Positions 4,966 to 63,093 of a stretch of 64,000 nt of DNA are shown here, piece after piece. The position numbers and the translations under genes were made by a program. This stretch comes from Escherichia virus TH54. How positions within the stretch are numbered: position 1 is the first letter of the stretch; each line of letters starts with the position of its first letter. The notes beneath the pieces were generated by a model. The model did no database searches and was not told the origin of the DNA. It worked only from the letters and a program-made list of their open reading frames with translations. Location: sequence record MT446420.1; one strand, 5' to 3'.

Positions 4966-5272
4966 CTTCCAATTTTACCTTCATTAATTTAGCGTATTCG
5001 ACTGCAGCAGCACGGCCATCAATTTGACATGTGATTTCATTTACACATTGGCTCTTATTGTTCCATTCAGTTTTAATAAAAGCCCAAAATTGTTCGGACT
5101 GCTCGACGCTGGGTTCTTTGAATTGCGAATAGATTTGCATCGCACTATCTGCATACTGGGTAAATTTACCATCTGTAGCAGAGGACATATTTGGGCCTAA
5201 ACAGCCCATTAGTAATAGACTTAGAGAAAGTCCTCGAATAAGGTCCATAAAGGACTCCTTATTGTTGGTCAT
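4955..5272 (-). CDS. rI: lysis-inhibition regulator rI-like protein
   Basis: N-terminal hydrophobic signal/anchor; C-terminus ...AAAVEYAKLMKVKLEDEI resembles T4 RI ...AEMAQSYARIMNIKLETE; lies next to tk as in T4. Confidence 0.6.
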   Translation of the reverse strand: MTNNKESFMDLIRGLSLSLLLMGCLGPNMSSATDGKFTQYADSAMQIYSQFKEPSVEQSEQFWAFIKTEWNNKSQCVNEITCQIDGRAAAVEYAKLMKVKLEDEI

Positions 5273-5319
5273 GATTACGCTTTGCAGCCTTAACATAGCG
5301 GAATACTAGTTAGTAACTG

Positions 5320-5327
5320 TATTTATA
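5320..5327 (-). promoter_or_regulatory. late promoter TATAAATA on minus strand upstream of rI
   Basis: exact TATAAATA about 50 nt upstream of the rI ATG. Confidence 0.4.
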
Positions 5328-5598
5328 ATCTTTTAAACTTGAAACAATATATTGCAAATAAATCAGAAAAATGGCTATCAACCCATATTCTTTGCACTGG
5401 ACTAGTAACAGTCAGCATATAATGTGCTTTTTGTAAATTTATTCCATTTTTATTCGGACATTCTTTATTAACAGAATGGTACGTGCTTGCTACTATTTCA
5501 ATTTCCCTTTCATATCTCTCGCTATCTGTTTGTGTGGGGATAAATGCAATTCCAGCAATAACAAAAATAGAGATATACGTCCAAATCTTATATATCAT
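5323..5598 (-). CDS. small membrane protein
   Basis: 91 aa with one N-terminal TM helix (ISIFVIAGIAFIPT). Confidence 0.4.
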   Translation of the reverse strand: MIYKIWTYISIFVIAGIAFIPTQTDSERYEREIEIVASTYHSVNKECPNKNGINLQKAHYMLTVTSPVQRIWVDSHFSDLFAIYCFKFKRL

Positions 5599-5605
5599 AA
5601 GGACC

Positions 5606-6178
5606 TCAGCTTGTCAATTCGAGCCAATGTTTCCTGCATAAAGATACGTACGATTCATTCCCACCGACCAATACTTGCTCGCCGTCCTTTACAGCAGCAC
5701 CGTCGATTACTCGAGCGGTCATGGTTGCTTTCCGGCCGCAATGGCAGACGCCCTTTAATTCAACCAGTTTATCCGAAATAGCCAGAAGTCTGGCTGAACC
5801 GGGAAATAACTGACCCCGAAAATCTGTTCTTAGCCCGTAACACATAACGGGGATATTGTAATTATCAACCACTCGTGCTAACTGGTCAATTTGCTCTGGC
5901 AACAAAAATTGAGCTTCATCGACCAGGACACAATGGATGTCCTTTTGAGACTCGGCCCATTTATAGAATTCAAACAGGTTCATGTCGGCCGTTACCAGGT
6001 TTGCTTCCTGGCTAATACCAATACGTGATTTAATTTCAGATTCCGAGTCCCGATTATCAATAACAGGCTTTAGCAAAAGCACACTCATTCCACGCTCTTT
6101 ATAGGAATAAGCGGCAGTCAGCAATGAAGCTGTTTTGCCTGCATTCATTGCTGCGTAATGATAAATTAAACTCGCCAT
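5606..6178 (-). CDS. tk: thymidine kinase
   Basis: 190 aa; P-loop AAMNAGKTASLL, VDEAQF and CHCGRKA zinc motif; near-colinear with T4 Tk. Confidence 0.9.
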   Translation of the reverse strand: MASLIYHYAAMNAGKTASLLTAAYSYKERGMSVLLLKPVIDNRDSESEIKSRIGISQEANLVTADMNLFEFYKWAESQKDIHCVLVDEAQFLLPEQIDQLARVVDNYNIPVMCYGLRTDFRGQLFPGSARLLAISDKLVELKGVCHCGRKATMTARVIDGAAVKDGEQVLVGGNESYVSLCRKHWLELTS

Positions 6179-6187
6179 ATCACCTTC

Positions 6188-6373
6188 TTAAAGCGTATTC
6201 ACATAAGCTATTAATTCGTTTTCTTTCTCATCAAATCGATTAGCAAATTCTTCCAGATGGTCGGCATCTATCGGGCCATATTCATCATAAAAGGCGTTTG
6301 CTTCCGTATGCTCGTCCAAAAGCTCATGGATAAGCTCAAACAATCTACTTTTCTGACTAATACTTAAACTCAT
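6188..6373 (-). CDS. hypothetical small acidic protein
   Basis: 61-aa ORF, overlaps next gene start. Confidence 0.4.
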   Translation of the reverse strand: MSLSISQKSRLFELIHELLDEHTEANAFYDEYGPIDADHLEEFANRFDEKENELIAYVNTL

Positions 6374-6576
6374 TTCAGTTCACCATATCGTACAAATTCA
6401 GGGTGTTCACAATCACCAGAATGGAGACCTTCACCTTCATGGTTAGGACATCCTTTATTAGAACAGTACCACCAGTAATCAAATCCACATTCCATTTCAT
6501 CGTTGCATAAAACTGCGATTACTGGCCATTCGCATTTTTCACATTTGGCCGTTTTAAGAATTCGGGCTTGGCTCAT
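6370..6576 (-). CDS. Cys-rich small protein, probable zinc ribbon
   Basis: 68 aa with CxxC...C...C...CxxC...C pattern. Confidence 0.45.
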   Translation of the reverse strand: MSQARILKTAKCEKCEWPVIAVLCNDEMECGFDYWWYCSNKGCPNHEGEGLHSGDCEHPEFVRYGELK

Positions 6577-51786: not shown

Positions 51787-51794
51787 TATAAATA
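51787..51794 (+). promoter_or_regulatory. late promoter TATAAATA for gene 20
   Basis: exact octamer followed by 5' leader hairpin ATGAGGCttcgGCCTCAT. Confidence 0.55.
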
Positions 51795-51842: not shown

Positions 51843-53417
51843 ATGGCAGGTTTTAACACAATACTAAATTTTCTTAAGCCTTGGGCTAAAGAAGATGAAC
51901 AAGAATATAAGCAACAAGAAAAAAATAATTTAGAGTCAATGACCGGGCCGAAGTTTGACGATGGGGCTCGCGAAATTGAGTCACAAGAACAAAACGTCCC
52001 GTATAATGCATTGATGCAACAGATGTTCGGGAGTAATGAACCTGAAGTAAAAAATACCAGGGAATTAATTGACACCTACCGCAACTTACTAAATAATTAT
52101 GAAGTTGATAACGCGGTGCAAGAAATTGTGTCTGATGCTATCGTTTTTGAAGACGGTAAAGATGTTGTAGCTCTTAATCTTGATGCTACCGAATTTAGTC
52201 AGAAAATTAAAGACCGAATCCTTGAAGAATTCGCGGAAGTTAATAACCTCCTTAATTTCGAGCGTAAAGGTTCTGACCACTTTAAACGTTGGTATGTGGA
52301 TTCTCGAATTTTCTTCCACAAAATTATCAACCCAGCAAAACTTAAAGATGGAGTTCAAGAACTTCGTCGTCTTGACCCAAGACAAATCCAGTTCATCCGT
52401 GAAATCGTTACACGCATGGAAAATGGTACAAAAATTGTTGACGGTTACAGAGAATATTTTGTATACGATACTGGTCATGAAAGTTATTGTGCCGATGGTC
52501 GTATATATGAAGCAGGTACTAAAATAAAAATTCCTCGTGCGGCGATTGTATATGCGCATTCTGGATTACTCGATTGTTGTGGCAAGAATATCATCGGATA
52601 CTTGCAACGAGCAATTAAACCTGCAAACCAATTAAAACTATTAGAAGATGCTTTAGTCATTTATCGTATAACTCGTGCTCCAGACCGCCGAGTCTTTTAT
52701 ATTGATACTGGGAATATGCCGTCTCGTAAAGCAGCAGCGCATATGCAACATATTATGAACACGATGAAAAACCGTGTCGTATATGATGCAACCACGGGTA
52801 AAATCAAAAACCAACAGCACAACATGTCTATGACAGAAGACTATTGGTTGCAACGTCGTGATGGTAAAGCTGTCACTGAAGTTGATACTCTTCCGGGCGC
52901 GCAAGGCATGTCGGATATGGATGATGTTCGCTGGTTTAAGAACAACCTATATCAGGCTCTCCGAATTCCATTATCTCGTATCCCTAATGACCAAAACAGC
53001 GGCGTTATGTTTGATGCGGGCTCGACAATTACTCGCGATGAATTGAATTTCTCTAAATGGATTAGGCAGCTACAGAATAAATTTGAAGAAGTTTTCCTCG
53101 ACCCGCTTAAAACCAACCTTATCCTGAAAAAAATTATTTCAGAAGAGGAATGGGAAAAGGAACTAAATAATATTAAAGTTACGTTCAACCGTGATAGCTA
53201 TTTCACCGAAATGAAAGACGCAGAAATCATGGAACGCAGAATCAATATGCTAACGATGGCTGAACCGTTTATCGGTAAATATATTTCGCATCAAACGGCT
53301 ATGAAGGATTTCCTCCAGATGTCTGATGAAGAAATTAATCAAGAAGCTAAGCAAATTGAATTGGAGTCCAAAGAGGCTCGTTTCCAAAACCCTGAAGAAG
53401 AAGAAGAGGATTTCTAA
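51843..53417 (+). CDS. 20: portal protein gp20
   Basis: 524 aa. Confidence 0.92.
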
Positions 53418-53674: not shown

Positions 53675-54102
53675 TGTTTATTATCCCTGATGATTACGAA
53701 TTAACTCTTGAAAACATCGAAAGTGTTTCCGAAGAAGCTCAGGGACAATTTGATTCATTATCCGAAGCCTTAGAAAAAGACGATATAAATATTATTGTAG
53801 AAAACATGTTTGCAGCCGGTGAATACGAAAAAGCAACGGTTATCGGCGCACTGAATGAAGGTGTTCAGCTTAACGAATTTATCGTTAAACATGTATCGTC
53901 TCGCGGTGAGTTAACCCGCACAAAAGACCTAGCTACTCGTAAGCGTAATGCTTTCCAAACAACTGGTCTTTCTAAAGCTAAACGTCGTCAAATTGCCCGT
54001 CTGGCTACTAAAACAAAAAGAGCAAACCCATCTACGCAAATCAGAGCAGAGCGCAAGCGCAAAAAAGCTCGAGCTAAGCGTAAAGCATTCGGACTTGATT
54101 AA
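53674..54102 (+). CDS. 68: prohead core protein gp68
   Basis: 142 aa, basic C-terminus. Confidence 0.75.
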
Positions 54103-54740
54103 TGGAACAGAAACCAGAGTTACTAATCGAACACTGGGGTCAACCGGGCGAAATTAAAGATGGTGTACCGATGTTGGAATCTCATGATGGTTCCAGCAGC
54201 GGTTTAAAGCCAGGACTTTATATTGAAGGTATTTTCCTACAAGCTGAAGTTGTTAACCGTAATAAACGACTTTATCCTAAACATATTTTGGAAAAAGCCG
54301 TTGCGGACTATATCGCCGAACAGGTTGAAACCAAACAGTCTCTTGGAGAATTAAACCATCCACCTCGTGCAAACGTTGACCCTATGCAGGCGGCAATTAT
54401 TATAGAGGACATGTGGTGGAAAGGGAATGATGTATATGGCCGCGCGCGTATTATCGAAGGCGACCATGGCCCAGGTGATAAACTTGCTGCGAATATAAGA
54501 GCAGGTTGGATTCCTGGTGTATCTAGTCGTGGACTTGGTTCCTTGACTAAATCAGCAAAAGGTTATAGCATCGTTAATGAAGGTTTTAAATTGACGGTTG
54601 GAGTAGACGCAGTATGGGGGCCAAGTGCTCCGGACGCTTGGGTCAAACCAAAGCAGATTACAGAATCACAAACGGCAGTTGCCGATACCAGTGCCGATGA
54701 CGCCTTTATGGCTCTCGCAGAGGCTTTAAAGACGTTATAA
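54102..54740 (+). CDS. 21: prohead core protease gp21
   Basis: 212 aa. Confidence 0.9.
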   Translation: MEQKPELLIEHWGQPGEIKDGVPMLESHDGSSSGLKPGLYIEGIFLQAEVVNRNKRLYPKHILEKAVADYIAEQVETKQSLGELNHPPRANVDPMQAAIIIEDMWWKGNDVYGRARIIEGDHGPGDKLAANIRAGWIPGVSSRGLGSLTKSAKGYSIVNEGFKLTVGVDAVWGPSAPDAWVKPKQITESQTAVADTSADDAFMALAEALKTL

Positions 54741-54772: not shown

Positions 54773-55591
54773 ATGCTTAAAGAACAACTCATTTCTGAAG
54801 CTCAGAATATCGATGCTTCCGTTGCTCTTGATAGTATTTTCGAATCAGTTAATTTGTCCCCGGAAGCGAAAGCTACCTTCGGCACTGTATTCGAAGCTAC
54901 CGTCAAGCAACACGCCATCAAACTGGCAGAATCTCACATTCACGCCATCGCTGAAAAAGCTGAAGAAGAAGTCGAAAAGAATAAAGAAGAAGCCGACGAA
55001 AAAGCAGAGAAAAAACTGAAAGAATCTGCAGCTAAATTCCTGGACCACGTTGCTAAAGAATGGCTCGCTGAAAATAAACTGGCTGTCGACCGTGGCATTA
55101 AAGCCGACCTGTTCGAATCCATGTTCACCGGCATGAAAGAACTGTTCGTTGAGCACAACGTTGTTGTTCCAGAAGAATCTGTCGATGTTGTTGCAGAAAT
55201 GCAGGAAGAACTGGCTGAACAGAAAGAAGAAACCGCTAATCTGTTCGAAGAAGTTGCTAAGCGTGATGCTTATATCAATTATGTCCAACGTGAAGTTGCG
55301 TTGACTGAAGCGACTAAAGACCTGACTGAATCTCAAAAAGAAAAAGTTGGTTCTCTGGTAGAAGGCATGGAATACTCTGATGCATTCGGTACCAAAATTG
55401 GCGCTATCGTTGAAATGGTTAAAGGTCAGGTAGAAGCCACCGACAAACCAATCACCGAAGCCGCTATAAATAAAAATGTAGACGATGCTGCGGCACTGAA
55501 TTACATTTCAGAAGCAGTTGAAGAAAAAGGCACCAAGCCTACCCTGTCCTTTGCGGACTTGTCTGCTCTCGCAGCATCACGAATTTCTTAA
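54773..55591 (+). CDS. 22: prohead core scaffold protein gp22
   Basis: 272 aa, highly helical and acidic. Confidence 0.85.
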   Translation: MLKEQLISEAQNIDASVALDSIFESVNLSPEAKATFGTVFEATVKQHAIKLAESHIHAIAEKAEEEVEKNKEEADEKAEKKLKESAAKFLDHVAKEWLAENKLAVDRGIKADLFESMFTGMKELFVEHNVVVPEESVDVVAEMQEELAEQKEETANLFEEVAKRDAYINYVQREVALTEATKDLTESQKEKVGSLVEGMEYSDAFGTKIGAIVEMVKGQVEATDKPITEAAINKNVDDAAALNYISEAVEEKGTKPTLSFADLSALAASRIS

Positions 55592-55612: not shown

Positions 55613-57172
55613 ATGAAAAAGAATGCATTAGTTCAAAAATGGTCCGCTCTGTTGGAAAACGAAGCTCTTCCGGAAATCGTTGGTGCTTCCAAACAAGCTA
55701 TCATCGCTAAAATCTTTGAAAACCAGGAACAAGATATTCTGACCGCTCCTGAATATCGTGACGAAAAAATCTCCGAAGCATTTGGTTCTTTCTTGACCGA
55801 AGCTGAAATCGGTGGTGACCATGGTTATGATGCTACCAATATCGCTGCTGGCCAGACCTCTGGTGCAGTAACTCAGATTGGGCCGGCAGTTATGGGTATG
55901 GTTCGTCGTGCTATCCCGCATCTGATTGCGTTTGATATTTGTGGCGTACAGCCTCTGAACAACCCGACTGGCCAGGTATTTGCCCTGCGCGCAGTTTACG
56001 GTAAAGACCCTGTAGCTGCTGGTGCTAAAGAAGCTTTCCACCCGATGTATGCTCCGAACGCTATGTTCTCTGGTCAGGGCGCCGCTCAGACTTTTGAAGC
56101 TCTGGCTGCAAGCAAAGTTCTGGAAGTTGGTAAAATTTATTCTCACTTCTTCGAAGCAACCGGTTCCGCGCACTTCCAGGCTGTTGAAGCTGTAACCGTT
56201 GATGCTGGCGCTACTGACGCTGCTAAACTGGATGCTGAAGTTACCAAACTGCTCGAAGCTGGCAAACTGGCTGAACTGGCTGAAGGTATGGCTACCTCTA
56301 TCGCCGAACTTCAAGAAGGTTTTAACGGTTCCTCTGATAACCCGTGGAACGAAATGGGCTTCCGTATCGATAAACAAGTTATCGAAGCTAAATCTCGCCA
56401 GCTGAAAGCAAGCTACTCTATCGAATTGGCACAGGACCTGCGCGCTGTTCACGGTATGGATGCTGATGCCGAATTGAGTGGTATTCTGGCTACCGAAATT
56501 ATGTTGGAAATCAACCGCGAAGTTATCGATTGGATTAACTACTCCGCACAGGTTGGTAAATCTGGTATGACCAACACCGTTGGCGCTAAAGCTGGTGTGT
56601 TTGACTTCCAGGACCCGATTGATATCCGTGGTGCGCGTTGGGCTGGTGAAAGCTTCAAAGCTTTACTGTTCCAGATTGATAAAGAAGCCGCTGAAATCGC
56701 TCGTCAGACCGGTCGTGGTGCAGGTAACTTCATCATCGCTTCCCGTAACGTAGTTAACGTACTGGCTGCTGTTGACACTTCCGTAAGTTATGCTGCTCAG
56801 GGTCTGGGTAAAGGTTTCAACGTTGACACCACTAAAGCTGTGTTCGCCGGTGTTCTGGGTGGCAAATACCGTGTCTATATCGACCAGTATGCTCGTGCAG
56901 ACTATTTCACCATCGGTTACAAAGGCGCTAACGAAATGGATGCTGGTATCTACTACGCACCATATGTTGCACTGACCCCGCTGCGTGGCTCTGACCCGAA
57001 AAACTTCCAGCCGGTTATGGGCTTCAAAACCCGTTACGGTATCGGTATCAACCCGTTTGCTGACCCTGCTGCTCAGGCTCCGACCAAGCGCATTCAGAAC
57101 GGCATGCCGGACATCGTTAACAGCCTTGGCTTGAACGGTTACTTCCGCCGCGTATATGTTAAAGGAATTTAA
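55613..57172 (+). CDS. 23: major capsid protein gp23
   Basis: 519 aa. Confidence 0.95.
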   Translation: MKKNALVQKWSALLENEALPEIVGASKQAIIAKIFENQEQDILTAPEYRDEKISEAFGSFLTEAEIGGDHGYDATNIAAGQTSGAVTQIGPAVMGMVRRAIPHLIAFDICGVQPLNNPTGQVFALRAVYGKDPVAAGAKEAFHPMYAPNAMFSGQGAAQTFEALAASKVLEVGKIYSHFFEATGSAHFQAVEAVTVDAGATDAAKLDAEVTKLLEAGKLAELAEGMATSIAELQEGFNGSSDNPWNEMGFRIDKQVIEAKSRQLKASYSIELAQDLRAVHGMDADAELSGILATEIMLEINREVIDWINYSAQVGKSGMTNTVGAKAGVFDFQDPIDIRGARWAGESFKALLFQIDKEAAEIARQTGRGAGNFIIASRNVVNVLAAVDTSVSYAAQGLGKGFNVDTTKAVFAGVLGGKYRVYIDQYARADYFTIGYKGANEMDAGIYYAPYVALTPLRGSDPKNFQPVMGFKTRYGIGINPFADPAAQAPTKRIQNGMPDIVNSLGLNGYFRRVYVKGI

Positions 57173-57190: not shown

Positions 57191-57222
57191 AAAAAGGGAC
57201 CCTTGAGGTCCCTTTCTTGTTT
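57191..57222. terminator. bidirectional intrinsic terminator GGGACCcttgaGGTCCC
   Basis: perfect 6-bp stem flanked by A5 and TTTCTTGTTTT. Confidence 0.7.
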
Positions 57223-57504
57223 TCATACCATACCATTTAAATGAACTTCTACCCGGCGCTTGATAAGGTCTCTGAAGTTAACATTGTTTTCTTGAAGTTT
57301 CAACCAGTTACCATTTTTATCTTTAGTGTGAGTAGAATAATTACCATTCCACCAGAAATCAGTGTCATATGCTAAGTTTTCATATTTTTTAACTAGTTTG
57401 TTCAGAGCATTGCCATTAACACCATTTGGGTATTTGTTGACCAATGCAATAACTTCAATTTCCAATTTTTTAAAGGTATTCAGAAGGAAAGTTGCTTTGT
57501 TCAT
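57223..57504 (-). CDS. small hypothetical protein inserted between genes 23 and 24
   Basis: 93 aa from second Met (MNKATFLLNTFKK), which is preceded by GGAG; early promoter cassette upstream. Confidence 0.45.
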   Translation of the reverse strand: MNKATFLLNTFKKLEIEVIALVNKYPNGVNGNALNKLVKKYENLAYDTDFWWNGNYSTHTKDKNGNWLKLQENNVNFRDLIKRRVEVHLNGMV

Positions 57505-57506
57505 TT

Positions 57507-57571
57507 TAGACTCCATTGTTTGGTAACTCAGTATGAAATCATTATGTCTTATCTTAATCGGGTTGTAAACA
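57507..57571 (-). promoter_or_regulatory. early promoter cassette (-35 GTTTAC, -10 CATAAT) with conserved leader, inside late module
   Basis: same leader block as cassettes at 33-100 and 19.5-21 kb. Confidence 0.55.
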
Positions 57572-57576
57572 ACTTT

Positions 57577-57584
57577 TATAAATA
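57577..57584 (+). promoter_or_regulatory. late promoter TATAAATA for gene 24
   Basis: exact octamer 27 nt upstream of ATG. Confidence 0.55.
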
Positions 57585-57610
57585 AAGTATATCACAAAAG
57601 GAAAGCGCAA

Positions 57611-58891
57611 ATGGCAAAGATTAACAAATTACTGCGCGAGTCAACTATTACTACCAGCAACTCCTTGGGCCGCCCGAATCTTGTTGCTTTGACCCGCGCT
57701 ACGACTAAATTGATTTACCGCGATATCATCGCTGAACAACGTACTAACCAGCCTGTTGCTGCACTGTATGGTGTTAAATATCTTACTCCTGATAACGAAT
57801 TCAGTTTCCAGACGGGCGCTACTTATGGAGGTGAAGTCGGTTCTAAAGACCGTACAACTATTCCAGAGTTAGCTACAGCCACTCAGCCTGTGGCTAAAGG
57901 CGAATATGTAAAATACCAAAATATCGTTTACAAAGCTCTGGTTGATAATCCATTTGCATCGACCACAGAAACAGTGTTATCTGATGTTCTGCAAGAAGGT
58001 CTTATTGCATCGACTATTCGCCTTGTTCCTGATGCAGCACACACCGAGAAATTTGAAACCGGTGATGTTGAAATTAGCAATGCTGTATTCCAGGTTAACA
58101 AATGGAATGCTCCGGTTAAAACACGTAAATTGAAAACTGCATTAACTGTTGAACTTGCCCAGGATATGGAAGCAAATGGTTTTAATGCTCCTGCTTTCTT
58201 AGAAGACCTGCTTGCCACTATTATGGCAGATGAAATTAACAAAGATGTTCTTCAGTCTCTTATTACCGTTTCCAAGCGTTATAAAGTAACTGGCGTTTCT
58301 GACAATGGTTCGGTTGATTTGACATATGATGCAGCCCCGGAAGGCGCACGTAAACTGTATGAACTGGTTTGCGAAATGAACTCCGAAATTCAGAAAACTA
58401 CATCTTATTCCGGTACCTTTGTTGTTGCCTCTAGCCGTGTTGCTGCTATGTTGGCCGGTTCTGGTTGGTTGAAACACAGACCAGAAGATGAGCAATGGCT
58501 CCCCGAAACCGCTTATGGATATTTGATTAATGGTCTCCCTGTATTCTGTGATGTTAACAGCCCATTGGATTATGTAACCGTTGGCGTTAAAGAAAATTAC
58601 GGCGGAAACGAAGTCGTAGGTTCAATCTTCTATGCTCCTTATACCGAAGGCCTGGACTTGGATGATGAAGAGCACGTGGGCGCGTTTAAGGTCATCGTGG
58701 ACCCAGACAGCTTGCAGCCATCTATCTCCCTGATGGTTCGATATGCACTTTCAGCCAACCCTTACACCGTTGCTAAAGACGATAAAGAAGCTCGTATTAT
58801 CGATGCAACCAATATGGATTTAATGGCCGGTCAGAGCAACATGTCTTATCTGCTCGGTGTTAAACTTCCGCCAATCATTTATGAGGCGTAA
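57611..58891 (+). CDS. 24: capsid vertex protein gp24
   Basis: 426 aa; MAKINKLLRESTITTSNSLGRPNLVALTRATTKLIY close to T4 gp24. Confidence 0.9.
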   Translation: MAKINKLLRESTITTSNSLGRPNLVALTRATTKLIYRDIIAEQRTNQPVAALYGVKYLTPDNEFSFQTGATYGGEVGSKDRTTIPELATATQPVAKGEYVKYQNIVYKALVDNPFASTTETVLSDVLQEGLIASTIRLVPDAAHTEKFETGDVEISNAVFQVNKWNAPVKTRKLKTALTVELAQDMEANGFNAPAFLEDLLATIMADEINKDVLQSLITVSKRYKVTGVSDNGSVDLTYDAAPEGARKLYELVCEMNSEIQKTTSYSGTFVVASSRVAAMLAGSGWLKHRPEDEQWLPETAYGYLINGLPVFCDVNSPLDYVTVGVKENYGGNEVVGSIFYAPYTEGLDLDDEEHVGAFKVIVDPDSLQPSISLMVRYALSANPYTVAKDDKEARIIDATNMDLMAGQSNMSYLLGVKLPPIIYEA

Positions 58892-60175
58892 ATGCAAAAG
58901 ATTAATGCACTAATTCACGAATCAACATTAACGGCGGCCAACCAGGTCGCCCGTCCTAATTTGCTTTCTTATACACAGGCTACGAATAAACGAATTTTTA
59001 AAGCACTCGTGGCCGAGCAGAAAACTACCCAGCCTGTTGCAGCGCTGTATGGTGTTCGTGTTCTGAACCCAGATGATAAAATGACTTATCTCGGTGGAGC
59101 AACATTCGCGGGCCAGATTGGTATGTTCGAGCGTAAGAATATCCCAGAATTTACGAACAAAGACGAAGCTTATGCAGTCGGCGATATGTTTCAGTTTGAA
59201 AGTGTTGTATTCAAAGTTCTGGAAGCTTCACCCTTTGCCGGGACACTCGAAACTGATTTAGGTGAAGTTATTTCTGAAGCCATTGCTGCTGGACATATAA
59301 GAATGATGTCAGATGCTGCTTTCACTGATAAATTTGAAAAGGGGCATCCTGAAATTGCTGAAGCTGGGTTCCGTATCGATAAATGGCAGACTGAAGTTAA
59401 ATCCAGAAAGTTGAAAACTTCTTTAACTGTCGAGCTTGCCCAGGACCTGGAAGCAAACGGTTTCGATGCAACAGACTTCATCGATAATATTCTCGGCATT
59501 CAAATGGCAGAGGAAATTAATAAGGATGTATTGCAATCCCTTATTACTGTTAGTTCCCGCTTCAAGGTACAAGGTGTTTCTGAAAAAGGCGTCCTGAATC
59601 TTACTGACCCGAAATATGATAACGCACAGGACCGCGCACGAACCCTGTATTATTATATGTGTGAAATGAATTCTGCAGTTCAACGTCAGACTTCGTTTGC
59701 TGGTACATATGCGGTTGCTTCTTCCCGTTGTGCAGCTATTTTAGCCGCTTCTGGTTGGGTTGAGAAAAAGGAAGACCAAGATGAATTAGCCTATGGTGTT
59801 CTGAAGAATGGTTTGCCTCTTTATGCGGATATGAATAGTCCATGCGATTATGTTATTGTTGGTGTAAATGCGGATATGGGCGAGGGTCAGACGGTCGCAT
59901 CTTTGTATTATGCGCCTTATACGGAAGGGCTTAGCGAAGTTGATGATGAGGGTGATACCTCGGTTGGGGAATTCAAGGTTATTGTTGACCCTGAAAGCTT
60001 ACAGCCTACGGTTGCACTGTTAGCTCGTTATGCTTTGACTGCTAACCCTTACACCGTTGCTAAAGACGATAAAGAAGCCCGCATTATTGATGGAGCTGAT
60101 ATGGATAAGATGGCCAACCAAAGCCAATTGAGTTCTTATCTTGGTGTTAAACTTCCACCACTGGAAAAAGAATAA
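58892..60175 (+). CDS. second gp24-like capsid vertex paralog
   Basis: 427 aa colinear with upstream gp24 (shared SRKLKT..TVELAQD, LQSLITVS, YAPYTEGL, ANPYTVAKDDKEARIID) but more divergent. Confidence 0.85.
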   Translation: MQKINALIHESTLTAANQVARPNLLSYTQATNKRIFKALVAEQKTTQPVAALYGVRVLNPDDKMTYLGGATFAGQIGMFERKNIPEFTNKDEAYAVGDMFQFESVVFKVLEASPFAGTLETDLGEVISEAIAAGHIRMMSDAAFTDKFEKGHPEIAEAGFRIDKWQTEVKSRKLKTSLTVELAQDLEANGFDATDFIDNILGIQMAEEINKDVLQSLITVSSRFKVQGVSEKGVLNLTDPKYDNAQDRARTLYYYMCEMNSAVQRQTSFAGTYAVASSRCAAILAASGWVEKKEDQDELAYGVLKNGLPLYADMNSPCDYVIVGVNADMGEGQTVASLYYAPYTEGLSEVDDEGDTSVGEFKVIVDPESLQPTVALLARYALTANPYTVAKDDKEARIIDGADMDKMANQSQLSSYLGVKLPPLEKE

Positions 60176-60196
60176 GGGCCTTGCGGCCCTTTTTTA
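60176..60196 (+). terminator. intrinsic terminator GGGCCttgcGGCCC + T6
   Basis: hairpin and TTTTTT directly after second gp24 stop. Confidence 0.65.
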
Positions 60197-61201
60197 TTCA
60201 CTAATTAATGCAATCCAAACATGTCTTAATGTTTCTCTTACATTTGCGATAAGTTGCTTTTTAACTTCAACAGGATTTTCTGTTTGGGTCAATTCAAGGC
60301 CTTCACGACCCGCTTCTTCCAGGATATCCTGGACAGTCAAACCCATTACCTTCCCAAAATCCTTTGGCGATACTTCCCCAATCTTACTGATAACATTATT
60401 GATGCGGTTAACAGTCACATAATCAGTGAACTTCCATAAAATATCCAGGTCTTCCTGGGACAACACAACAGCAGCCTTAATAGGCTTATCAGACTTTTTC
60501 TTTTCACTGAATTTAGAGTTCTTGCATTTAATCGCCACACGCTCGCCGTTAGGTAACCAGGCAGGAACATCAGGTTTTAATACAAATCCTTCAGCAGTGA
60601 ATACTTTACCTTCCACCTTTGCATCAAAATCAGTGGTATTTGCTGTAGTCAATCCTGCGTTATCCACTGTAAAATTGTAATCAGGGACCACAGAATCCAG
60701 GTCATTAGGTAGCTTAATTAATTCTTCAAAACTACCTGTAGCCAGGCGCGGAGCAACTTTAAACTTATGAATAATACAAAAGGCTTCCATAAGTGTGTCA
60801 GTCAGGACGGATTCAGAGCCATCTTCCTTAGTAACGCGAATATCAAACACATAGAAATCTTTATCACCGTAATCCACATTCTTCTGGATACCTGACCCGG
60901 CAAACTCACCATAAATCTGATATGCCTGGTAATTAATATCCTGCAAAAGTTTCTGCACAGATTTAATAGAATCTGCGTAGTTCTTTAATACAATTTCATA
61001 ACCATAGAAATCTTCTGCAGGTAGGATAGGTCCAGTGCGTTTCGCGCATGTCACATTGTCTTGTTCAATAATTAATGAAAAATTGGTACCATGAATTTTC
61101 TCACGGGCTACCCATTCACCGCTGGTGAAGCCTTGTAGGCGAATTTTTTCAATGAATTTGTTGTTATAGTGATTTTCAAGGCTGTTATATTTCTTAAACA
61201 T
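60194..61201 (-). CDS. rnlB: RNA ligase 2
   Basis: 335 aa; [19 protein letters not shown]...[12 protein letters not shown] with ligase motif I KxHGxN. Confidence 0.9.
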
Positions 61202-61960: not shown

Positions 61961-63093
61961 TAATAAACGTAATCGTATATAATACCAGCTTCTAAAGCGG
62001 TGCGATGAATAATTCGACCATTACGAGATTCTTGCACATCAACCTCTGGATAGTCGGTAATCATTTTTTGAAGTGTGTATCGGTGCAAATAATATGGGCT
62101 ATTTGGGTCATCGGTTTTCCAGTCTTGTCCAGCAAGAGCCATTTTCTGAATTTCATCCATAACCCACCAACCACACCAGATATAAGCTGAATTACGTACC
62201 GGCAATGGATGAACGTAAGGTAATTCGCCATCTGGAACTGGTGCGACTTTAGCCGTGACTGTTACATTACCGGTTTTTGTGACAGTCGCCGGGTCATAAT
62301 CAGTCGCCGAAACCACAACAGAAACTTCAATAACCTGGGAACCTTCGGTGCTTGTGTCGATTACTAGAGTATCCGTGGTGCCAACTACAGGAGAACCGTC
62401 TTTCTTCCAAGAATATGCAAAAGTAGCACCAGCAGGCGCGCCAACCACATCTGCTTGAAACGAAGCTGGAGTACCTTCCGGAACATTAATTGATTCTGGA
62501 GTTAATGTAACAGAAACACCCGACATAGTTTTCTTAACAAAAGTTACCGCAGCTCCTTTAGATGCGGTACCATTATTATAATCGGGTGCAGAAACAGTAA
62601 CTTCACAGTTCAATGTATAATTTGCTTCAGCCGATTCGGTGATGGTGATTGTTTTACCAGTTTGCCCTGGGATTACATCGGCATTTCGTTTCCATACATA
62701 AGAAGCAGACGCTCCATCTGGTTGCCCGCTGATATTAGCTGTAACAACTTGAGATTGTCCTATTTCTTTAGTAACAGAGGCTGGGTCTAAAGTCAGCGTG
62801 ATTGCCGGCATTGTTTTATTCTGGATAGTTAAAGTCGTCTCAGCTTCAGCAGTTTCCGGTTCGCCTTCCGCTGGTGTAGTTGTTGCAACAACTTTAATAG
62901 TCTTGCTGCCTGCTGGACCAACAGCAACATAATCCATCGCAGCGGTCACAGAAGATTGAGGAACGCCATCAACGGTCCAAACAAATGATTCAGTACCTTC
63001 AGCTGCAGCACCGGAACCGGTCGCAGTGAAATTTGTTGTTGCTCCAATAACGGCCGTAGCCGCCAAAGGAGCAATATCTACGGTATAAGCCAT
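61960..63093 (-). CDS. hoc: highly immunogenic outer capsid protein Hoc
   Basis: 377 aa with three tandem Ig-like repeats and C-terminal ...ELPYVHPLP..SAYIWCGWWVMDEIQKM as in T4 Hoc. Confidence 0.85.
   Translation of the reverse strand: MAYTVDIAPLAATAVIGATTNFTATGSGAAAEGTESFVWTVDGVPQSSVTAAMDYVAVGPAGSKTIKVVATTTPAEGEPETAEAETTLTIQNKTMPAITLTLDPASVTKEIGQSQVVTANISGQPDGASASYVWKRNADVIPGQTGKTITITESAEANYTLNCEVTVSAPDYNNGTASKGAAVTFVKKTMSGVSVTLTPESINVPEGTPASFQADVVGAPAGATFAYSWKKDGSPVVGTTDTLVIDTSTEGSQVIEVSVVVSATDYDPATVTKTGNVTVTAKVAPVPDGELPYVHPLPVRNSAYIWCGWWVMDEIQKMALAGQDWKTDDPNSPYYLHRYTLQKMITDYPEVDVQESRNGRIIHRTALEAGIIYDYVY

Follow-up and report, generated by a model that had tools for sequence, protein, structure and literature searches.

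A conserved pair of paralogous capsid vertex genes in the T4-type head-gene cluster of Escherichia virus TH54

The DNA analysed here, a stretch of 64,000 nucleotides (nt) from Escherichia virus TH54 (sequence record MT446420.1; 'the window' in what follows denotes the whole of it), carries on its plus strand a head-gene cluster of the T4 type, with the order 20-67-68-21-22-23-(small minus-strand open reading frame)-c1-c2-rnlB, as in T4. This work is concerned with c1 and c2, two adjacent genes for capsid vertex proteins of the T4 gp24 type, the coordinates of which are collected in Table 1 together with those of their neighbours. The pair as such is already known, being annotated in public records of close relatives. 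What is new is that the second copy appears to be old, usually the better conserved of the two, dependent on the presence of the first and different from it chiefly in segments through which vertex subunits would contact their neighbours.

A model-generated reading of the letters of the window (the sequence-only reading) had described c1 and c2 as two adjacent, colinear open reading frames (ORFs) of 426 and 427 residues. Their exact coordinates were confirmed, and BLASTP aligned the two proteins end to end with 55% identity, 75% positives and an E value of 9e-173, with three short indels, a similarity evidently far above chance. As had also been proposed, the second gene starts immediately after the first stops: the TAA of c1 (58889-58891) is directly followed by the ATG of c2 at 58892, leaving a spacer of 0 nt. 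Among the blocks quoted as being shared, LQSLITVS, YAPYTEGL and ANPYTVAKDDKEARIID do occur in both proteins, whereas SRKLKT is exact only in c2, the corresponding residues of c1 being TRKLKT. The first copy was correctly singled out as the T4-like one, since T4 gp24 shares 69% identity with c1 and 55% with c2 (over ~424 residues). With gp23 of the window, each protein shares only ~28-29% identity, confined to the C-terminal 250-284 residues. Both match the Pfam family PF07068 (Gp23 family), with 330 bits for c1 and 328 bits for c2, and both match phrog_138, while no NCBIfam model was found for either; the best matches of c2 among solved structures are gp24 chains. Alignment against gp24 and gp23, part of the check suggested by the sequence-only reading, likewise places both copies with gp24, and in trees of gp24 sequences c2 forms a single clade with 100% bootstrap support. 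Both c1 and c2 thus appear to be T4 gp24-type vertex proteins, their similarity to gp24 clearly exceeding that to gp23.

The signals around the two genes point to joint expression. An exact copy of the T4-type late promoter box, TATAAATA, precedes c1; the window contains 19 such boxes compared with 5.0 expected, a number that was reached in 0 of 100 shuffles, and they lie mostly on the coding strand just 5' of structural genes (for example at 51787, 54736 and 57577). A search of the window for exact matches found none within c1 and none before c2. The terminator-like hairpin 3' of gene 23 is predicted to mark the upstream boundary of the vertex-gene transcription unit, and a G+C-rich bidirectional terminator that overlaps the c2 stop codon would serve both c1-c2 and the convergent rnlB. 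Because c2 is without a promoter of its own and the terminator is held in common, c1 and c2 appear to constitute one bicistronic late operon. The earlier statement that c2 has its own terminator is accordingly only half right: a hairpin does stand at the end of c2, but the transcript that it is predicted to end is that of c1 and c2 together, and it would serve rnlB as well. Both genes are preceded by Shine-Dalgarno-like sequences, and translation of c2 is probably coupled to that of c1, the abutting arrangement of TAA and ATG being typical of coupling.

The AlphaFold2 model of c2, which has a mean predicted local distance difference test (pLDDT) score of 74 and a disordered stretch of 33 residues at the N-terminus, was compared with solved structures using Foldseek. 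It matched T4 gp24* (5vf3_a) with a template-modelling (TM) score of 0.86 and an E value of 7e-54, followed by 7vrt (0.75) and 1yue (0.68), with lower scores for gp23 chains (0.52-0.63). The model therefore suggests an HK97-like fold with the T4-specific insertion domain; that of c1 is not in doubt at 69% identity to T4 gp24. Each protein also has a predicted prohead-protease site of the form L/I-x-E10-S11, with cleavage between the last two residues (LLRE10-S11 in c1 and LIHE10-S11 in c2), and an alignment of 72 homologues shows no variation at E10 or S11. In T4, the protease gp21 removes ten residues from gp24, cutting after Glu10, and the attachment of gp24 to the prohead vertices is thought to trigger the activation of gp21 (PMC9958956). 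After cleavage at Glu10, the predicted mature proteins have masses of 45.4 kDa (c1) and 45.7 kDa (c2) and isoelectric points of 4.65 and 4.63, respectively; on sodium dodecyl sulfate gels they would run together, and this may be why virion protein patterns have not drawn attention to a second vertex protein.

The 3.2-kb region comprising the pair is 91-97% identical to that of Gaprivervirus-type coliphages (pEC-M719-6WT.2, UPEC07, the VR series and Yersinia phage P8) and ~81% identical to that of Dhakavirus (the JS98 group). In GenBank, the two genes are annotated as 24a and 24b in JS98, as 24(1) and 24(2) in VR7, and as 'capsid vertex protein I/II' in VR5, VR20, VR25, VR26 and CJ20; the abstract of Chibani-Chennoufi 2004 is said to mention a 'gene 24 duplication in JS98'. 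The tandem duplication of gene 24 announced by the sequence-only reading is therefore real in the sense that c1 and c2 are tandem paralogues, but they are an old, conserved and annotated pair and not a peculiarity of this genome. A tblastn search with c2 located gp24-like genes at 1,535 places in 1,417 phage records, implying that ~118 records (8%) contain two. Thirteen two-copy loci were examined: those of the window, VR7, JS98, Salmonella phage CF-SP2 (Gelderlandvirus), Klebsiella phage F48 (Marfavirus), Erwinia phage Cronus (Roskildevirus), an Erwinia FBB1-like contig and six further metagenomic contigs. The pair is thus spread over at least five genera (Dhaka-, Gapriver-, Gelderland-, Marfa- and Roskildevirus), besides metagenomic relatives. 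All 13 loci have the order gene 23, c1, c2, with -4 to +1 nt between the c1 stop and the c2 start, and none of the 13 has a c2 without a c1 directly upstream. As judged from these loci, c2 is a separate lineage seen only beside a c1, on which it appears to depend. The single-copy loci used for comparison were those of T4, Karamvirus Entb_43, Kanagawavirus PEi20, Jiaodavirus JD18, Acinetobacter phage Meroveus and RB49.

Ratios of nonsynonymous to synonymous substitution rates (dN/dS) were calculated by the Nei-Gojobori method, which gives simple estimates that are saturated in the deeper pairs. Between the window and VR7, the ratio is 0.051 for c1 (dS 0.35), 0.022 for c2 (dS 0.39) and 0.067 for gp23 (dS 0.17), the dS values of c1 and c2 being unsaturated; between the window and JS98, it is 0.060 for c1 and 0.018 for c2, both of which are rough since dS exceeds 1. 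At the protein level, this second comparison, of Gaprivervirus with Dhakavirus, gives 96% identity for c2 and 88% for c1. More generally, dN is lower for c2 than for c1 in 40 of 45 pairs of two-copy genomes (medians 0.21 and 0.28; the pairs are not independent), the exception being the Cronus-like Erwinia group, in which c1 is slightly better conserved and both copies have dN/dS values of at most 0.14. The earlier view of c2 as the markedly more divergent copy holds relative to T4, but among two-copy phages c2 usually appears to be the better conserved one. Both ORFs are intact in all loci, with no frameshift or stop. Within each of eight genomes (8/8), dN between c1 and c2 is 0.37-0.39, and because this value is so steady the two lineages seem not to have been homogenized as wholes.

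The positions that distinguish the two lineages were sought by comparing 25 c2-type sequences with 107 c1-type or single-copy sequences. At 14 positions, each group has a conserved residue that differs from that of the other, and half of these positions (7/14) lie within residues 26-68 (A26S, T32N, L34R, Y36F, K56R, Y57V and T68G, given from c1 to c2); the other seven are 204, 261, 267, 288, 328, 335 and 415 in T4 numbering. No position was found in these sequences that is conserved in the c1 type but free in c2. In T4, a parallel strand pairing joins residues 26-29 of gp24* to an I-domain linker in the next subunit of the pentamer, and residues 11-20 stretch out over the adjacent gp23* hexamer (PMC9546572). 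Since the fixed differences fall mostly in regions that make neighbour contacts in T4, they appear, by analogy, to cluster in the N-terminal arm (N-arm) and I-domain-linker contact segments, where subunits recognize their neighbours.

The age of c2 was approached with neighbour-joining trees built on Kimura protein distances, with 300 bootstraps and RB49 as the root. Besides the c2 clade, these trees contain a 'crown' clade (95-96%) that unites every c1 of the two-copy genomes with the single gp24 of T4, Karamvirus, Moonvirus Merlin, Kanagawavirus and others, while c2 branches outside all other gp24 sequences, including those of Acinetobacter phages, with a bootstrap of only 70%. By gp21-23, on the other hand, the two-copy phages are scattered among single-copy phages. 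As c1 groups so firmly with single-copy gp24, the simplest reading is that the pair predates the crown-group radiation and that c2 was later lost in the lines leading to T4, Karamvirus and Kanagawavirus, or moved between phages. The signal differs along the protein: over residues 1-75, c2 is the outlier and the non-c2 sequences are monophyletic (71%), whereas over residues 100-300 the crown c1 is the outlier and c2 groups with basal and Acinetobacter sequences (62%), a regional pattern that is repeated by plain identities. At the C-terminus, c2 and crown c1 have a derived S-A-NPYTVAK-D-x-KEAR, where the basal lineages have S-V-NPYT-x-G-L/I. To us, these patterns speak of a duplication close to the base of the crown group, after which the two copies diverged in complementary ways.

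The region has also changed hands. The metagenomic contig L005 is 94-96% identical to Klebsiella phage JD18 in gp21-23 at the protein level, but carries c1 and c2 where JD18 has a single gene 24 of the basal type. Because the two share gp21-23 and differ at gene 24, the gene-24 region is exchanged among T4-type phages, as in a mosaic. A junction of the exchange possibly lies inside gene 24: identity of the L005 c1 to JD18 gp24 is 91% over the first 50 residues and much lower over the rest. The single gp24 of JD18 was also considered as a c1/c2 hybrid left by the collapse of a pair. This was rejected as the simplest reading because the gp24 proteins of Acinetobacter phages and other basal lineages share the same pattern, with a c1-like N-arm and a c2-like middle, which fits divergence from an ancestral state. 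Given such mosaicism, c2 might not have arisen by duplication in place but have entered by capture, its source being a distant T4-like phage and its point of insertion just downstream of the gene 24 already present. The position of c2 outside all other gp24 in the RB49-rooted tree, and the grouping of its residues 100-300 with basal lineages, would both be expected from such an event; the regional conflict, however, fits complementary divergence after duplication in place equally well, c2 shares the derived C-terminal motif with crown c1, and no single-copy lineage falls within the c2 clade nor was a phage seen with c2 alone, so that no donor is visible. Capture therefore seems unlikely to us.

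Local exchange between the copies was examined separately. The longest exact match between c1 and c2 in the window is a 35-nt tract (Table 1), identical despite otherwise saturated synonymous sites between the two genes, and exact tracts elsewhere lie at differing positions in each genome, for example one of 41 nt in CF-SP2 at gene position 622. In a sliding-window test, ~36 genome-windows had z > 2 compared with ~20 expected by chance, the strongest being columns 41-60 of contig L016. These observations are only suggestive of short gene conversion between c1 and c2, with genome-specific codon preference as a confounder.

Taken together, c1 and c2 are likely to be an old and conserved pair of paralogous penton genes that are co-transcribed, both functional and divided in their roles. 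It is very probable that both are functional shell proteins: c1 and c2 would each enter the shell of the prohead as subunits of its vertices and undergo processing there. How the job is divided is less certain. The fixed differences lie mostly in the N-arm and I-domain-linker segments, which make subunit and hexamer contacts in T4, and for this reason c2 might not be interchangeable with c1, but could form homopentamers at a subset of the 11 non-portal vertices, a proposal that we hold only tentatively.

Several considerations weigh against this explanation. All 55 subunits of T4 gp24* are structurally alike (PMC9546572), and geometry alone would hence make no demand for two vertex proteins; indeed, T4 manages with a c1-type gene alone. 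The strand pairing between subunits is largely mediated by the backbone, and substitutions in the N-arm need not enforce homopentamers. The trees are based on simple distances, and the deep placement of c2 is weak and varies by region. Codon adaptation, tried as a proxy for stoichiometry, is slightly lower for c2 (0.52) than for c1 (0.58), but the values are too close to interpret and say nothing of the ratio in which the proteins are made. Finally, no virion proteome or structure of any two-copy phage was found in the literature or the PDB, in which the only gp24 structures found are those of T4, and no paper on the role of the second vertex gene was found in a literature search that had key papers on JS98 and VR7 outside its reach.

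If the two proteins were interchangeable, all 11 vertices would be filled by both at random, through mixed pentamers or through homopentamers without fixed places, and both would be kept for dosage or robustness. Their tight co-expression from one operon with a coupled stop-start junction, the very similar size and charge of the mature proteins and the high similarity of the fold core and C-terminal region are all compatible with mixing, as is the likeness of all T4 vertices. Redundancy, however, seldom keeps copies of 55% identity at dN/dS values of 0.02-0.06 across genera, and it accounts neither for the lineage-specific fixed differences in contact segments nor for the complementary regional divergence; single-copy relatives, moreover, meet the dosage with one gene. 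We consider free mixing to be quite unlikely.

A different possibility is that only one of the two proteins is required under given circumstances, set for instance by the host, the temperature, the chemistry of the gut or a host defence that detects or attacks the vertex protein, while the other is a back-up. T4 gene 24 has the alias 'os' in GenBank, which we take to refer to osmotic-shock-resistant mutants. Several two-copy phages of the VR series are called low-temperature coliphages in the title of a cited paper, and T4 gp24 helps particles to withstand low pH and digestive enzymes (PMC10580926). With a single promoter and translational coupling, however, there is no visible means of expressing the two genes differentially, and the two-copy phages come from hosts as different as E. 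coli, Salmonella, Klebsiella, Erwinia and Yersinia. That c2 is never alone in the 13 contexts would also be unexpected if either copy sufficed, and conditional use strikes us as highly improbable. Less credible still is a c2 that acts as an assembly factor, a transient vertex, initiation or protease-activating protein that is absent from mature heads. The role ascribed to T4 gp24 in triggering gp21 activation (PMC9958956) and the dependence of c2 on c1 could be accommodated, but c2 retains the whole gp24 fold, the insertion domain and all of the shell-contact regions, with strong constraint along its full length, and keeps a protease site of the kind usual in proteins retained by the matured shell. 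Lastly, the scenario of a decaying or neutral duplicate carrying inactivating changes, for which the sequence-only reading had proposed dN/dS analysis as a test, has nothing to recommend it beyond the lower identity of c2 to T4 gp24 and is scarcely conceivable, decay being excluded at the sequence level by an ORF that is intact in every lineage, by retention across at least five genera, by the strong constraint on both copies (dN/dS 0.05-0.06 for c1 and ~0.02 for c2, the latter below c1 and gp23 in the closest comparison) and by the higher identity of c2 between Gaprivervirus and Dhakavirus.

Returning to the explanation of divided roles, the c2 pentamers might be confined to one defined geometric class of vertices, which would be either the single apical one, across the head from the portal, or a ring of five vertices; this refinement is speculative and rather unlikely. 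Were it true, the 11 non-portal vertices would be chemically non-equivalent, providing the capsid with a marker of polarity or with a special attachment or weak point, and a c2 vertex might anchor the collagen-like and short Hoc-like proteins that some relatives encode immediately after c2. It would also be the first tailed phage shown to have two different dedicated penton proteins.

Table 1. Features of the vertex-gene locus and of related loci. Positions refer to the window unless another sequence is named.
Feature	Position	Strand	Remarks
Gene 20	51843-53417	+	
Genes 67 and 68	Between gene 20 and gene 21	+	
Gene 21	54102-54740	+	gp21, prohead protease
Gene 22	54773-55591	+	
Gene 23	55613-57172	+	
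Terminator-like hairpin, bidirectional	57193-57215	Both	3' of gene 23; 9-12 bp stem with 5 G-C pairs
97-residue ORF	57223-57516	-	Between gene 23 and c1
T4-type late promoter box TATAAATA	57577-57584	+	Exact match, 26 nt 5' of the c1 start codon
Shine-Dalgarno-like AAGGA for c1	57598-57602	+	Read from the sequence; 8 nt before the ATG at 57611
c1, capsid vertex protein, 426 residues	57611-58891	+	Orthologue of T4 gp24 (JS98 24a, VR7 24(1))
Tract of 35 nt in c1	58757-58791	+	Identical to c2 60044-60078; codons for NPYTVAKDDKEA; longest exact c1/c2 match
Shine-Dalgarno-like GAGG for c2	58883-58886	+	Within the last c1 codons, 5 nt before the c2 ATG
c2, second capsid vertex paralogue, 427 residues	58892-60175	+	JS98 24b, VR7 24(2), 'capsid vertex protein II'
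c2 partner of the 35-nt tract	60044-60078	+	
Intrinsic terminator, bidirectional	60174-60191	Both	GGGCC-TTGC-GGCCC hairpin and T-run; overlaps the c2 stop
rnlB	60194-61201	-	Convergent
hoc, T4-like, 377 residues	61960-63093	-	Repeated Ig-like segments
Part of window Hoc matched by short Hoc	61984-62475		Hoc capsid-binding C-terminus
Collagen-like gene and Hoc-like gene in VR7	L001 7725-9199	+	At the place of hoc
Collagen-like and short-Hoc module	L019 (Cronus) 5001-6516		
Collagen-like and short-Hoc module	L018 7326-8841		
Collagen-like and short-Hoc module	L016 2634-4140		
Collagen-like and short-Hoc module	L017 4890-6427		
Collagen-like and short-Hoc module	L007 6331-7856		
Collagen-like and short-Hoc module	L004 2676-4506		

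Genes for head decoration were also noted near the pair. Immediately after c2, and on its strand, Cronus and five deep-branching relatives have a collagen-like ORF (~335 residues), which has Gly-X-Y repeats and is homologous to VR7 ORF196w, and then a short Hoc paralogue (~166 residues), which consists of one Ig-like domain and a capsid-binding C-terminus matching that of the window Hoc. The same module has another location in VR7 and JS10-type phages; in Aeromonas phage 65, under the annotation hoc-2, it lies away from any vertex gene, and it is absent from the window. A link between c2 and these genes was therefore set aside as non-exclusive, and their adjacency is a lead, not evidence. At the place where the window has a T4-like hoc on the minus strand, VR7 carries a collagen-like gene and a Hoc-like gene on the plus strand, and the head-decoration locus thus differs between these close relatives. 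The interval between gene 23 and c1 holds a small minus-strand ORF that matches phrog_6003 and has no Pfam match; in T4, this slot is occupied by the homing endonuclease gene segD. Homologues of the small ORF are annotated as hypothetical in VR7 and JS98, and as 'glycosyl hydrolase family 25' in the relative EAWsc9.

T4 is the reference for large prolate capsids, and the T4 model assumes one vertex protein for all eleven corners. About one in 12 of the sequenced T4-type phages nevertheless keeps a second vertex protein, among them therapy candidates of the JS98 and VR7 groups, and selection on the second appears to be as strong as, or stronger than, that on the first. Should c1 and c2 sit at different corners, one axis or ring of the head would be chemically marked, with consequences for how head length and polarity are set, for the stability of particles in the gut and for vertices as sites of display. 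Simple mixing would make the pair a clean natural example of a duplicated structural gene that has been retained over the long term.

Among known systems, the nearest are the 24a/24b pair of JS98 and the 24(1)/24(2) pair of VR7, which have the same order and the same abutting junction between gene 23 and rnlB. The window c1 is 88.5% identical to JS98 24a and 96.5% identical to VR7 24(1), and c2 is 95.8% identical to JS98 24b and 98.6% identical to VR7 24(2); nothing of substance differs, and the window belongs to their group, although VR7, unlike the window, carries a collagen-like gene further downstream. T4 gp24 (PDB entries 1YUE, 5VF3 and 7VRT/7VS5) resembles both proteins in family, length, genomic slot and N-terminal protease site, but in T4 one gene provides for all 11 vertices, whereas c2 of the window is a separate lineage with three short indels. 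The hoc-1 and hoc-2 genes of Aeromonas phage 65 are likewise a duplicated head-surface gene in a T4-type phage; they differ from c1 and c2 in encoding a decoration protein rather than a shell subunit. The closest parallel in kind is the paralogy of gp23 and gp24 in T4-type phages, in which a shell protein was duplicated and one copy then specialized for another position of the lattice; that gp24 derives from the major capsid protein by this older duplication is the accepted view (PMC9958956). The gp23 and gp24 proteins share only ~20-29% identity and have known, different positions in hexamers and pentamers, whereas c1 and c2 share 55%, any difference in position between them being putative. 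On the explanation favoured here, the c1/c2 pair would represent a second round of the same process.

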